Shown: positions 619-53,479, counted from the first letter of the stretch. The stretch is 64,000 bases of DNA from Thermoplasmata archaeon (GCA_021827405.1 JAKAVY010000002.1:12464-76463); one strand, 5' to 3'. A program made the numbers and translations. Notes: generated from the letters alone by a model not told the origin.

Positions 619-1158
619 TCAGGCGGCCGGGTAGACGAGCTCTCCGCCCGGCTTCTGGTGGGACGGGAGCTTCTTGGTCGCCACGTTCTTGGTCTTCCAG
701 AAGATCTCGGCGAACTCCTGGACGCTCGCGACCAGTTCCTGGGCAGCCAGGAGGTTGACCTCCTGCCGTGCCTTGGACGCTTGTTTGAGGATCTTGAAGA
801 CCAGTTCGTGGACCTGGGGGAAGGCCTTCACCATGTCCGGGGTGAAGTAGTCGCCCCAGATCACCCGGATCTCGTGCTTGACCTTCTCCGCATGCTGCTC
901 CTTGACCGCGGTGTAGCGGGCGGCCTTGGAAGCGAACGTGTGCCGCTCCTCCGGCTTGGCGTCCGGCCCCGGGGCCGGGAGCTCGTTCAGGAGTTGGACC
1001 ATTCGGACCACGGTCAACGCCCCGATCTGGGCCTCGTGGGGGTCGTAGATGCCACAGGGGATGTCGCAGTGGGCGTAGGCCGTTTCCGGAGGGGCGAGGG
1101 CGTCCAGGAGCCGGTAGGACCGGTCCTTCAGGGTCTGCCAGGGCTTCATATCGACCAC
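619..1158 (-). CDS. sodN: Nickel-containing superoxide dismutase (Ni-SOD) precursor
   Basis: Ni-hook motif HCDIPCGIYDP after a 29-aa propeptide. Downstream VIWGDYFTP and EIFWKTK match Streptomyces SodN signatures (HCDLPCGVYDP, VLWSDYFKP, IFWETK). Confidence 0.9.
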   Translation of the reverse strand: MVDMKPWQTLKDRSYRLLDALAPPETAYAHCDIPCGIYDPHEAQIGALTVVRMVQLLNELPAPGPDAKPEERHTFASKAARYTAVKEQHAEKVKHEIRVIWGDYFTPDMVKAFPQVHELVFKILKQASKARQEVNLLAAQELVASVQEFAEIFWKTKNVATKKLPSHQKPGGELVYPAA

Positions 1159-49772: not shown

Positions 49773-50282
49773 TCAGAGCGGAAGGGCCATCTGGTAACCG
49801 CTCTCCCCGTCCGAGTAGTATCCCCGGAGCAGGTCGGTCACGGAGAAGCCGAAACGGGTGTAGAAGCGCAACGCGGTCTGGTTCCCCACCCGGACCTCCA
49901 GGGTCACCCGGACGAGCCCCCGGGCGCGCGACCGCCGGAGGAACTCCTCCATCAGGGCCCGGCCGATGGACCGGTCGCGCCAGCGGGCGTCGACCGCGAA
50001 CATGAGGATCCGGGCCTCCCCCGGGGTCTGGTTGACCCCCAGGAGGAACCCCTGGGGGACGGCGTCCCGGTCCTGGGCCACCAGGAAGCCCTGGGGCCAT
50101 TGCTGGGAGAGGGAGAGGTAGAGGGAGGCCTCGTAGTGCTCCCGCAGGGCGTCAGAGACGATCTCGGCGATCCGGGGGACGTCCCGGGGGTGGAAGTTCC
50201 TCAGGAACACGTCGCGCTCGGTGGCCCGGCGCCCCGGGACGACCGGGCCCGGCGTGGGGGCGGTCTCAGCGATACATCTCAC
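49773..50282 (-). CDS. GNAT-family N-acetyltransferase (RimI-like)
   Basis: Acetyl-CoA motif A region RDRSIGRALMEEF...GLVRVTLEVRVGNQTALRFYTRFGF. Confidence 0.75.
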   Translation of the reverse strand: MRCIAETAPTPGPVVPGRRATERDVFLRNFHPRDVPRIAEIVSDALREHYEASLYLSLSQQWPQGFLVAQDRDAVPQGFLLGVNQTPGEARILMFAVDARWRDRSIGRALMEEFLRRSRARGLVRVTLEVRVGNQTALRFYTRFGFSVTDLLRGYYSDGESGYQMALPL

Positions 50283-51039
50283 CCGCCCCGGGCTCGGAGA
50301 GCTCTTTCATGGACGCGCGCTGCTGGACGATGTTCCGCCGAAGCTCCCCCTCGATCTCCTCCGCCTTGCGACGCAGCGGCCGCGTATCGATCGCCAGGCG
50401 AGGGACCATGGGCCGGAGGATCTCGAGCACGCGCGCCGCGGCCCGGGCGTCCGGGTGGCCCTTGTGGGCCTGGGCCACCAGGCAGAGGACCGGCAGCTCC
50501 CTTCCCACGCTGGCCGAGAGGAGCGCCCCCGCGAAACCGGTGACGAGGCCGGTGGCCGGGGGGAACCGGTACTCTTCCCGGATCCTCGTGGCTGAACGGT
50601 TGCTCATGGCCACCACCCGCACGTCGCCCGGGGGCGTCTCCTCCACCGGCTGGCCCTCCAGGGCCACCACCAGCTTGACCCCCTTCGTCTCGGCGTAATC
50701 GAGCAGGCGCTTCCCGATCCCATTGAGCAGTTCCGGCGGGGGCTGGATGTCCGAGAGGACCGCCACCAGGGGGCTTCCCTTGCGCTCCGTCCCGGGGAAC
50801 TCCCGGCTGGAATAGAGCCGGACCGGGGGTTGGACCTCCCCGGCCTCCATGACCACCGTCGGGGGCAGGCGGTCGCTCTGGAGGTACCCGAGGGGGGTCA
50901 TCCCGAGGGAGTGGACCAGGTAGCTCACGGCCACCGAACCGACCAACCCGTGGGTGGGGAAGCCCACCACCAACGTGGAGCCCCGGAGGCTCTCGGGCCG
51001 GGTCTCCACGATCCGGGGGTCGGACCTCGGCCCAGCCAT
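50266..51039 (-). CDS. Proteasome assembly chaperone (PAC2) family protein
   Basis: LVVGFPTHGLVGSVAVSYLV N-terminal PAC2 signature, 257 aa. Confidence 0.7.
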   Translation of the reverse strand: MAGPRSDPRIVETRPESLRGSTLVVGFPTHGLVGSVAVSYLVHSLGMTPLGYLQSDRLPPTVVMEAGEVQPPVRLYSSREFPGTERKGSPLVAVLSDIQPPPELLNGIGKRLLDYAETKGVKLVVALEGQPVEETPPGDVRVVAMSNRSATRIREEYRFPPATGLVTGFAGALLSASVGRELPVLCLVAQAHKGHPDARAAARVLEILRPMVPRLAIDTRPLRRKAEEIEGELRRNIVQQRASMKELSEPGAGEMYR

Positions 51040-51102
51040 GGCGATAGGCGGGGAGAGGGCGGGGCCTACATAAGGGCCCGGCGGGGGCCCACCGACCGGA
51101 GG

Positions 51103-52125
51103 CTACCCTTCCGACGAGGCCGGGGGGTCCGGCGGGTCGGTCCGGGGCGTCGAGCTTTCGAGCCGGGCCCGGTCCTCCGGGGAGAGGCGGAGAAAGAGCA
51201 CCGAAGAGGGGAGCATCTCGAATCCCCGTTCCGTCAGGCCCCCCTTCACCCTCACGCTCAGGTTGGGGGGAAGGCCGGTCACCTCCAGCCCGAGGCCCCC
51301 GGCCTGCCAGTCCTCGAGGAGCCGTCCCAACCAGGGCCCCACTCCGGTCTTCGGGTCCAGGGGAAGCCAGCGGACCGAGTCCACCACGGAGTCCTCGGCC
51401 CGGAAGACCACCACCGGGATGCCGGCCGGCACGTTCCCCCGCTCCGCGTGGACCCGGGTGATCTCCTCCGCGAGCTGGGTCCGCTCCTCCTCCGCCCGCT
51501 GGGCGAGCTGCCGGAGCTGCGCGATCTCGTCATCCTTCTCCTCCAAGCTCTGGCGGAGGTTCGCCAGGGTCACCTTGAGCTGGGAGAGGTCGGACTCCTG
51601 GCTCTCCAGCTGGTCCCGGTACGGTTCGTGCTCGTGGGCGGGGAGTTCGTGCTCGTGGACCGGGAGCTCGTGGTCGTGGGAGGGGAAGGGATGGTCGTGG
51701 TCGGGGAGATCGTGTTCGTGGGGAGGGATGGCGAGGAAGGCTCCCGGCTCCTCCGCGCCGGGGAGGAGCCCCTCCGGTCCCGGTCCCCCGGTCTCCGGAC
51801 CCTCCGGGGCCCCCTCCCCGGTCTCCGGGGCTGGGAGGGCGTCCGTCTGGGCCTCGAGCTCCGGGGCGCTTTGGGGACCGGGGGGTTCCTCGCCGACCCC
51901 CTCGGAAGGGGCCGGGGCAGGGGCCACCCAGGGGGGGACGGTGGCATCGGGCGCCCCGGGAGGGGGGGGAGGGGGGACCGGAAGGGGGATCCCATGGACC
52001 CGGTTGCGGTGGACGGCCATCATCCGGGCGGGGAGTTCCCGGCCGCACTCCGGGCAGGTGTGGACCTCGGTCCCCGGGGAGGCCTCAGGCACCTCGCCCG
52101 GGGCGGGAGCTCCTTCCTCCGGCAC
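51103..52125 (-). CDS. Hypothetical Zn-ribbon/C2H2-like protein with Pro-rich linker, His-rich HEHELP-type tandem repeats and coiled-coil
   Basis: HTCPECGRELPARMMAVHRNRVHG. Repeat tract HEHDLPDHDHPFPSHDHELPVHEHELPAHEHEP. Heptad-like DLSQLKVTLANLRQSLEEKDDEIAQLRQLAQRAEE. Confidence 0.5.
   Translation of the reverse strand: MPEEGAPAPGEVPEASPGTEVHTCPECGRELPARMMAVHRNRVHGIPLPVPPPPPPGAPDATVPPWVAPAPAPSEGVGEEPPGPQSAPELEAQTDALPAPETGEGAPEGPETGGPGPEGLLPGAEEPGAFLAIPPHEHDLPDHDHPFPSHDHELPVHEHELPAHEHEPYRDQLESQESDLSQLKVTLANLRQSLEEKDDEIAQLRQLAQRAEEERTQLAEEITRVHAERGNVPAGIPVVVFRAEDSVVDSVRWLPLDPKTGVGPWLGRLLEDWQAGGLGLEVTGLPPNLSVRVKGGLTERGFEMLPSSVLFLRLSPEDRARLESSTPRTDPPDPPASSEG
51630..51735. repeat. Imperfect tandem repeat of about 18-nt units (gtgctcgtgg/gtggtcgtgg...) encoding the His-rich H(E/D)H(E/D)LP repeats
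   Basis: Visible periodicity gtgctcgtgggcggggagttc / gtgctcgtggaccgggagctc / gtggtcgtgggaggggaaggg / atggtcgtggtcggggagatc / gtgttcgtggggagg. Confidence 0.5.
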
Positions 52126-52252
52126 GAGGATACCAGGGACTCAAGGGGGGAAAAGTGTTCGCCCTCCCCCGGGGTACCCCGCCGAGGGGGGAGGGGGGGC
52201 ATCCTCGGGAGGGAGCAGGCTTTTACCGTCCCTGCGTCGTCCGTCTCCACCG

Positions 52253-53479
52253 ATGCGCATCCTCATCACCGGGATCGACGGCTACTCGGGTTGGGCGCTC
52301 GCCCTCCACCTGCTGAAGCGTGGTCATACCGTCAGCGGCCTGGACAACTTCGTCACCCGCCAGCGGGTGGCGGAAGTGGGCGGTTGGTCCGCCACCCCCA
52401 TCCCCACGTTCCGGGAGCGGCAGGCCGCCTTAGGGGACCTGGGGATCGGGACGATCTCCTTCCACGAGGTGGACCTGGGGGACTATGCGGCGACCCGACG
52501 GGTGCTCAGGGAGGAGCGGCCGGAGGCGGTGGTCCACCTGGGGGAACAGCGCTCCGCGCCCTACTCCATGATCGACGTCCATCACGCAGTGGCCACCCAG
52601 ACCCAGAACGTCACCTCCACCCTTCACCTGCTCTATGCCCTGCACGAGACCCTCCCCGACGCCCACCTGGTGAAGATGGGGACCATGGGGGAGTACGGCA
52701 CCCCGAACGTGGACATCCCTGAGGGGTTCTTCGAGGTGGAGTTCCGGGGCCGCCGGGACCGGATGCCCTTTCCCCGCCAGGCGAGCAGCTGGTACCACTG
52801 GAGCAAAGTGTTCGACTCCGGGGACGTGATGCTGGCGAACCGTCTCTGGGGGCTCCGGGCCACGGATGTGATGCAGGGGGTCATCTACGGGACCCGGACC
52901 CCCGAGATCACCGACGACCGCCTCCTGACCCGCTTCGACTTCGATGAGGTCTGGGGCACCGCGCTCAACCGCTTCTGCGTGCAGGCCGTGCTGGGGCTGC
53001 CGATCACCCCGTACGGGAAGGGAGGGCAGAAGCGGGGCTTCCTCGCCCTGGAGGACTCCGTCCAGAGCCTGACCCTCGCCCTGGAGAACCCCCCCGAGCC
53101 CGGGGAGTATCGCGTCTTCAACCAGTTCGATGAGGCCTACAGCGTACGGCAACTCGCGGACCTGGTGGTGGCCGAGGCCTGCGCCCGGGGCCTGGACTGC
53201 CACGTGGAGGCCTCCTACAACCCCCGGGTGGAGGCGGAGGAGCATTACTACCACCCGCTGCACGAGCGGCTCCCGGCGCTGGGATACCGTCCGCTCCGGA
53301 CGCTGAAGGACTCGCTGGGAGAGATGCTCACGGACCTCACCCGGTTCAAGGCCCGCCTGGAGGCCCGGCGGCACGTCGTCCAGCCCCGGATGGACTTCCG
53401 TTTGTCGGACAACAAGGCGAGACTGTCTGCGCCCCCCGGTGCCCGGGAGGTCCCGGCCGCGCCCTCGGGACACCGGTGA
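52253..53479 (+). CDS. agl3: UDP-sulfoquinovose synthase (SQD1/Agl3 family NAD-dependent sugar-nucleotide enzyme)
   Basis: MRILITGIDGYSGWALALHL (SQD1 GGDGYCGWATALHL motif), EQRSAPYSMID, HLVKMGTMGEYGTPNVDIPEGFFEV. The track ORF starting at 51263 is an upstream read-through. Confidence 0.8.
   Translation: MRILITGIDGYSGWALALHLLKRGHTVSGLDNFVTRQRVAEVGGWSATPIPTFRERQAALGDLGIGTISFHEVDLGDYAATRRVLREERPEAVVHLGEQRSAPYSMIDVHHAVATQTQNVTSTLHLLYALHETLPDAHLVKMGTMGEYGTPNVDIPEGFFEVEFRGRRDRMPFPRQASSWYHWSKVFDSGDVMLANRLWGLRATDVMQGVIYGTRTPEITDDRLLTRFDFDEVWGTALNRFCVQAVLGLPITPYGKGGQKRGFLALEDSVQSLTLALENPPEPGEYRVFNQFDEAYSVRQLADLVVAEACARGLDCHVEASYNPRVEAEEHYYHPLHERLPALGYRPLRTLKDSLGEMLTDLTRFKARLEARRHVVQPRMDFRLSDNKARLSAPPGAREVPAAPSGHR

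Follow-up and report, generated by a model that had tools for sequence, protein, structure and literature searches.

Several proteins are known to bind metals through histidine-rich sequence. Hpn and the histidine stretches of HypB, SlyD, UreE and CooJ are nickel- and zinc-binding storage proteins or tails, while the octarepeats of the prion protein and the GHHPH repeats of histidine-rich glycoprotein are short histidine repeats that bind copper or zinc. Two histidines separated by a single residue (His-x-His) are a recurrent metal-ligand pair, since both imidazoles lie on one face of an extended strand. Here, we describe a gene, referred to as X, on the minus strand of a 64,000-nucleotide (nt) stretch of DNA from a Thermoplasmata archaeon (GCA_021827405.1 JAKAVY010000002.1:12464-76463; hereafter, the window). 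Its product carries a tandem array of seven-residue His-x-His units between a putative zinc finger and a coiled coil. We speculate, with a probability of roughly 40%, that X is an oligomeric scaffold in which aligned His-x-His units bind divalent metal. Metal binding by this tract is the most economical reading of the locus, and one that we infer from its strictly kept histidines: both histidines of every heptad are retained while the other positions drift.

The histidine heptads and the protein that carries them

X is a real gene under purifying selection, because both codon-position base composition and the pattern of substitutions fit its reading frame. The proportion of guanine plus cytosine (GC) at its three codon positions is 0.81/0.51/0.89, alongside 0.70-0.78, 0.46-0.55 and 0.87-0.94 in neighbouring genes of known family, and the frames that compete with it are a misfit. 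Compared with the ortholog at locus L010, differences number 43, 34 and 96 at codon positions 1, 2 and 3. Counted as synonymous and non-synonymous changes, these fall out as 14 and 0 in the coiled coil, 9 and 2 in the zinc-finger region, and 7 and 5 in the histidine region, where the unit listings place none of the non-synonymous changes at a histidine. The linker, with 9 and 38, evolves fast and is very variable in length among orthologs. An identical copy of the window protein is found on 24 contigs of independent assemblies.

The protein is acidic (isoelectric point 4.55), with 16% proline, two cysteines (0.6%) and no hydrophobic stretch of membrane-segment length, and we regard it as soluble, cytoplasmic and modular. 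Its parts follow one another as a C2H2-type finger, a proline-rich motif, a disordered linker, the His-x-His heptads, a coiled coil of about 64 residues and an alpha/beta domain of about 90 residues (Table 1). This agrees with the order given in a preliminary description of the locus, which listed a finger, a proline-rich segment, histidine repeats, a coiled coil and a conserved-looking C-terminal domain. Structural statements here come from a metal-free, full-length AlphaFold2 model built on an alignment of nine sequences.

In the window, the units diverge at the DNA level, matching one another at 73-78%. Because of this divergence, the repeats are taken as old and maintained, rather than the product of fresh slippage. 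Tandem Repeats Finder (TRF) places the DNA repeat at 51624-51722, with a period of 21 nt, 4.7 copies, 73% matches and a score of 100. The preliminary description had quoted the histidine tract exactly and had recognised a tandem DNA repeat, which stands; its period of about 18 nt and its span of 51630-51735 give way to the TRF values. The tract is modelled with low confidence (predicted local distance difference test, pLDDT, of about 50-57). Its last unit is invariant and abuts the helix, such that H166, the second histidine of that unit, is the first 'a' position of the coiled coil.

The family as a whole follows the consensus H-[EDQ]-H-[ED]-[LVFM]-P-[EAD]. Across 17 orthologs and about 100 units, both histidines are kept in every unit and the seven-residue register is never broken. 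A tally of 86 non-terminal units shows E, D, Q or S at position 2 and variation at positions 4-7. The helix is in every case directly preceded by the terminal unit, H[ED]HE-x-[YI]. This pattern indicates that both histidines of each unit are selectively maintained.

Copy number shifts between species and lineages, from 1 to 14 when arrays are chained at exact seven-residue spacing. A single unit is present in P0013 and L015 (the latter also having a second, separated His-x-His upstream), two in L009, P0008 and P0014, four in L008, five in the window, L010, P0002 and P0004, six in P0003 and P0005, seven in P0011, twelve in P0010 and L014, and fourteen in P0007/L005 and L013. The units of the long arrays differ less from one another (81% matches), and this near identity suggests that the arrays have expanded recently. 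Within the 90%-identity cluster of the window protein, however, all 8 of 8 alleles are 340 residues long and have an identical tract of five units. Since the tract is identical in these alleles and the protein recurs in independent assemblies, the earlier expectation that repeat number would vary between strains finds no support, and neither does the concern that the repeats had collapsed during assembly.

On the C-terminal side of the array, the coiled coil has H166, L, L, L, L, I, A, R, I and R at its 'a' positions, and Y169, Q, L, L, K, L, A, L, V and V at its 'd' positions. The alpha/beta domain that follows is unclassified. When modelled alone from 28 sequences, it reached a pLDDT of 83.6 and a predicted template modelling score of 0.73, with its elements in the order beta-beta-alpha-beta-beta-beta-beta-alpha. 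Because only P, W and R are invariant in this alignment, with no catalytic-type residue invariant across the 28 sequences of the wider family, the domain is probably not enzymatic.

At the opposite end of the protein, the finger motif HTCPECGRELPARMMAVHRNRVHG (residues 22-45) is followed by a run of seven prolines. An N-terminal zinc-finger-like motif with a poly-proline stretch had thus been correctly reported, under the wrong class: it was named a zinc ribbon, yet its ligands are C2H2 (C24, C27, H39 and H44) rather than four cysteines. A C4 zinc ribbon is excluded, as X has two cysteines in total and its second ligand pair is formed by two histidines on a helix. A match to Zn_ribbon_9 covers the first knuckle alone and, at 15.7-17.6 bits, falls short of the cut-off of 29.1. 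All four ligands are invariant in 8 of 8 full-length orthologs, and the model predicts a beta-beta-alpha fold (strands 21-23 and 30-32, helix 33-44) with a pLDDT of about 90. The ligands fit the classical C2H2 set (Cys-x2-4-Cys ... His-x3-5-His), although the spacer has 11 residues in place of the canonical 12. In Pfam the finger does not match zf-C2H2; the best models are zf_UBZ, Sgf11 and Znf_XAF1_N, at E values of 0.02-0.1 and below cut-offs. Matches of an N-terminal profile to PDB sequences are likewise weak (Aart, 1.9e-4 when summed over six fingers; single C2H2 fingers, at least 0.1; the Sgf11 finger, 0.05). Ligand pattern and model together point to a putative single C2H2-type zinc finger.

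The adjoining proline-rich motif reads VPLP..PP.PPGxPDPxxPPW[VI]. It has invariant residues at P47, P49, P53, P56, D60, P64 and W66 and may be a short linear interaction motif.

In the scaffold that we favour, the helix would pair or triple chains in parallel, thereby aligning their His-x-His arrays just N-terminal to the coiled coil. Each unit would offer two imidazoles with flanking carboxylates, and the aligned units of two or three chains could chelate zinc, nickel, cobalt or copper, with one site per heptad level. The array would therefore act as a multivalent metal-binding strip, tunable by copy number and disordered when metal is lacking. The finger, proline-rich motif and C-terminal domain would be interaction modules that tether this strip to partners, making X a metal-buffering or metal-responsive scaffold and not an enzyme.

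Several observations weigh against this proposal. Two histidines per seven residues is less dense than in classical nickel and zinc storage tails. Searches of Pfam, NCBIfam and PDB sequences revealed no homology to any known metal-handling family, including any metallochaperone or metal-responsive regulator, the two roles that had first been suggested for X. Genes for metal transport or metalloenzyme maturation are not conserved near X or its orthologs. Because some orthologs carry only one or two units, the array appears dispensable, and the core function of X may lie elsewhere. Finally, the oligomeric state and parallel orientation of the coiled coil are ones that we infer. The interpretation offered in the preliminary description is consequently supported in part, and is plausible but unproven.

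A more elaborate version of the metal-binding scaffold, which strikes us as very improbable, would be a 'metal zipper'. Here, zinc, nickel or copper would bridge parallel tracts and extend the coiled coil in the N-terminal direction. The length and rigidity of the rod would then depend on cellular metal status, or on pH, and would determine how the head formed by the finger and proline-rich motif is presented to partners such as the adjacent PbaA-like proteasome chaperone, with repeat number tuning the range of the response in different lineages.

Table 1. Features of gene X, its product and other loci in the window (positions counted from the first nucleotide of the window)
Feature	Position	Strand	Details
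Gene X, zinc-finger/His-x-His protein	51103..52125	-	340 aa; GTG start; stop codon 51103-51105
C2H2-type zinc finger (putative)	51991..52065	-	Residues 21-45; ligands C24, C27, H39, H44 (C-x2-C-x11-H-x4-H)
Proline-rich motif	51922..51990	-	Residues 46-68; pLDDT 57-87
Acidic Pro/Glu/Gly-rich disordered linker	51727..51921	-	Residues 69-133; pLDDT 33-40
Five tandem units of 21 nt / 7 aa	51616..51720	-	Residues 136-170: HEHDLPD HDHPFPS HDHELPV HEHELPA HEHEPYR
Coiled-coil helix	51436..51627	-	Residues 167-230; 64 residues, about 9 uninterrupted heptads; pLDDT 94-98 (AlphaFold2)
C-terminal alpha/beta domain, unclassified	51151..51423	-	Residues 235-325; pLDDT about 80-86 in the full-length model
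AT-rich TATA-like box of X, AACACTTTTCC	52148..52157	-	About 23-33 nt upstream of the GTG of X
PAC2-family proteasome-assembly-chaperone homolog	50266..51039	-	Pfam PAC2, E 5.9e-38; downstream of X
AT-rich box of the sulfoquinovose-synthase-like gene	~52221-52226		About 25-35 nt upstream of the start
UDP-sulfoquinovose-synthase-like gene	52253..53479	+	NF041015, 572 bits against a cut-off of 575; divergent neighbour of X
Nickel superoxide dismutase gene sodN	619..1158	-	TIGR02753, 151.5 bits against a cut-off of 90; Pfam Sod_Ni, E 1.2e-43

Other accounts of the gene

X might instead be a pure scaffold or adaptor, a possibility that we hold to be doubtful but worth serious attention. Its finger, proline-rich motif and C-terminal domain would bind partners and its coiled coil would multimerise, while the His/Glu heptads would serve as a spacer tunable by pH or charge, with no specific role in metal binding. 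Such a spacer would be near neutral with its histidines protonated and strongly negative otherwise. A copy number ranging from 1 to 14 is what would be expected of a spacer, and the long, disordered, fast-evolving linker is in keeping with the same idea. Further, paralogs without histidine repeats share the coiled coil and C-terminal domain, which implies that this module works without the histidines. A non-homologous archaeal precedent for the layout is CdpC of Haloferax volcanii, an adaptor in which a disordered linker connects a zinc finger to a binding domain (bioRxiv 10.64898/2026.07.16.738847). However, neither a spacer nor a pH sensor needs an exact His-x-His geometry, and yet the histidines and the seven-residue register are always kept.

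It is unlikely that X is a nucleic-acid-binding regulator responsive to metal or stress, in which the basic helix of the finger (R34, R40, N41 and R42) contacts DNA or RNA, the coiled coil dimerises and the histidine tract senses metal. The invariance of the finger ligands and of the HRNR(V/L)H helix would suit such a role, as would the confidently predicted beta-beta-alpha fold, and small archaeal zinc-finger proteins do regulate transcription, Brz being an example (PMC2253796). Nevertheless, a single finger seldom confers sequence-specific binding, the protein is strongly acidic, and no Pfam DNA-binding domain was found in X. No conserved operator-like repeat was seen either, although no search was aimed at one.

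A partnership between X and the adjacent PAC2-family protein, in which X might, for instance, serve as adaptor or regulator when proteasomes are assembled or substrates delivered, is in our opinion a slender prospect. The PAC2 protein ends in ...GEMYR, and its ortholog at L009 in ...SEMYR. This HbYX-like C-terminus resembles that of the archaeal proteasome-binding chaperones PbaA and PbaB. The order X then PAC2, on the same strand, is shared by the window and seven other loci (L010, L008, L011, L009, L015, L013 and L014), down to about 35% identity. At L018, the locus of another ortholog, the gene two places away is a proteasome-activating-nucleotidase-like AAA gene.

The pair is nonetheless broken in the P0007 and P0014 lineages, and PAC2 has a TATA-like box of its own at all loci. 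This box reads TTATGTA, TTATAAT or TATAAC, about 27-35 nt upstream of the ATG, and lies at about 51068-51074 in the window. The corresponding box of X, ACxCTTTTCC (C/T-TTTTCC), occurs at an equal distance in 8 of 9 orthologous loci. These AT-rich boxes are conserved across the orthologous loci L008-L015 in a region that is otherwise 70% GC. They are putative archaeal TATA boxes, which suggests that X and PAC2 are on separate leaderless transcripts. An X-PAC2 operon is unsupported on account of the separate PAC2 box. The epimerase gene upstream of X is also syntenic, so X and PAC2 may be neighbours simply because gene order is kept within a narrow clade. With a separate box for PAC2 and an epimerase gene that shares the synteny, the adjacency of X and PAC2 is weak evidence for a functional link.

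Lastly, the idea that X is an antisense shadow of the plus-strand ORFs (open reading frames) 50830..52722 or 51263..53479, which might arise since long ORFs overlap in several frames at the 69.5% GC of the window, is effectively refuted by the minus-frame codon composition, by substitutions that gather at minus-frame third positions and spare the coiled-coil residues, by orthologs kept down to 35% identity, and by the spurious nature of the 738-aa ORF at 51263..53479, which prolongs the UDP-sulfoquinovose-synthase-like gene upstream of its start at 52253. The preliminary description had likewise taken the zinc-finger motif and coiled coil to argue against such an artefact.

Relatives and genomic surroundings

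The family of X appears to be tiny and confined to a clade of Thermoplasmata. A word-indexed search with the X protein returned nine clusters, and one with the alignment of the C-terminal domain returned two proteins. An exhaustive search of 1.84 billion representatives with a hidden Markov model of the domain returned 31 proteins, with a full-length domain match in 27. All 6 of 6 loci from species-representative genomes are titled as metagenome-assembled genomes (MAGs) of 'Thermoplasmata archaeon', and the relatives lie in archaeal gene contexts, including NAC, diphthamide synthase, HMG-CoA reductase and A/V-ATPase genes. Orthologs possessing the finger, proline-rich motif, histidine tract, coiled coil and C-terminal domain are between 84% and about 35% identical to the window protein. 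One of these, P0009, has a full ORF of 398 aa at L009 4537..5733 that includes the zinc finger and proline-rich motif; its public gene call is too short (279 aa, start 4894).

Known families offered no assignment. Neither Pfam nor NCBIfam gave more than coiled-coil and zinc-knuckle noise below cut-offs, whether searched with the whole protein, its N-terminus, 10 relatives or the C-terminal domain in 28 copies. The domain profile reached a best E value of 0.34 against PDB sequences, Foldseek gave no PDB match at E<=0.001, and a search with the paralog P0025 found only unnamed hypothetical proteins. A domain-profile search detected no second copy of the domain in the window, and a literature search found nothing relevant for the repeat string.

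About 20 remote paralogs (in the range P0018-P0038) share the C-terminal domain, at E values of 1e-7 to 1e-4 against the profile. In these proteins a disordered N-terminus and a coiled coil precede the domain, with no His-x-His tract. X has the same defining combination, a domain of about 90 residues that matches the profile with a coiled coil (167-230) before it. Most of the remote paralogs end in an LPPLV motif that has been lost in the window clade, and their gene neighbourhoods are unlike that of X. P0022 and P0033 share one 97-kb contig, so several paralogs occur within one genome.

A longer, TTG-initiated ORF for P0022 (L017 5758..7089) would add an N-terminal CPVC-x11-H-x4-H, with spacing as in the finger of X. 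If this start is the true one, the finger may date back to the ancestor of the wider family. Histidine-free paralogs of the P0033/P0036 type (L020 6001..6903 and L016 1340..1849) sit inside an A/V-ATPase cluster. At L016 and L020-L022, they are flanked by subunit I on one side, and on the other by an MFS transporter and subunits C (AC39), E and K. A proposed connection with subunit E was rejected by hhalign.

Across a divergent promoter region from X lies what looks, from its gene content, like a sulfoquinovose-type glycosylation cluster, extending from 52253 to about 58100. The presence of glycosylation genes beside X had therefore been noted correctly. Beyond the UDP-sulfoquinovose-synthase-like gene, the cluster comprises a GalU-like nucleotidyltransferase, followed, in the identical locus L001, by a DegT aminotransferase and two GT4 glycosyltransferases. 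Sulfoquinovose-type glycosylation is known from Agl3 of Sulfolobus. On the other side, genes 3' of PAC2 on the same strand encode a RimI-like acetyltransferase, a CBS-domain protein, NAC, a NUDIX protein and diphthamide synthase. Together with PAC2 and the glycosylation genes, these make up the surroundings of X within about 8 kb, a distance over which no hydrogenase, urease or nickel superoxide dismutase (Ni-SOD) maturation genes were found.

The sodN gene itself, whose product has the N-terminal hook HCDIPCGIYDP, is notable in a Thermoplasmata archaeon and implies a cellular need for nickel traffic. It had been placed 'next door' to X, but it is about 50 kb away, and a link between X and Ni-SOD is rejected on that distance. 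In a related Thermoplasmata MAG, L008 9843..10047 encodes part of a DNA gyrase B with an intein, the Pfam Intein_splicing match falling between GyrB domains; the gene runs off the locus.

Comparison with known metal-binding repeats and fingers

If the His-x-His array does bind metal, it would represent a new metal-handling architecture in poorly known, uncultured Thermoplasmata: a zinc-finger scaffold bearing a chelating strip that is tunable by copy number and fixed to a coiled coil. If the 'metal zipper' were true, archaea would have a new kind of structural switch gated by metal. The unclassified C-terminal domain, common to several paralogous coiled-coil proteins, could be registered as a new domain family. 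The X family is a well-delimited, lineage-restricted group of hypothetical proteins, and histidine-rich repeat proteins are already known as a kind. Its description is useful for annotation but will not surprise specialists.

The finger of X resembles single C2H2-like fingers (zf-C2H2, Sgf11 and UBZ) in its ligand order, C-x2-C ... H-x4-H, and in its predicted beta-beta-alpha fold. Like X, the Sgf11 finger has 11 residues between its second cysteine and its histidine. The finger of X differs in being a single copy placed at the very start of a long archaeal protein.

The Rad50 zinc hook is an analogue in function only, in that a metal-ligand motif on a coiled coil allows two chains to share metal. 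Rad50 has one CxxC at the apex of an antiparallel coiled coil, whereas X has 1-14 His-x-His units at the N-terminal end of its helix. The two are not homologous, and NCBIfam matches of X to Rad50 and SMC models are coiled-coil noise far below cut-offs.

X shares with Hpn and with the histidine stretches of HypB, SlyD, UreE and CooJ a disordered tract rich in histidine and acidic residues, probably able to chelate divalent metal, whose length varies by species. It nevertheless lacks sequence or domain homology to them. Pfam and NCBIfam searches found no folded-domain homology to HypB, SlyD, UreE, CooJ, Hpn or Mua, and the match to nickel_Mua (E 0.022, 14.8 bits against a cut-off of 75) is confined to the helix. 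The tract of X is a strict seven-residue repeat with two histidines per unit, and not dense poly-histidine, and the chain to which it belongs has an unclassified domain besides its zinc finger and coiled coil. Unlike HypB, SlyD, UreE and CooJ, X is not beside maturation genes for hydrogenase, urease or carbon monoxide dehydrogenase.

The principle that we propose for X is also that of the prion octarepeats and the GHHPH repeats of histidine-rich glycoprotein, in which each unit supplies histidine ligands, the number of repeats sets the metal capacity (as we suppose it would in X), and the metal-free tract is disordered. Those proteins are eukaryotic, extracellular or membrane-bound, and unrelated in sequence. 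By comparison, each unit of X is a His-x-His pair, and its array is anchored to a coiled coil.

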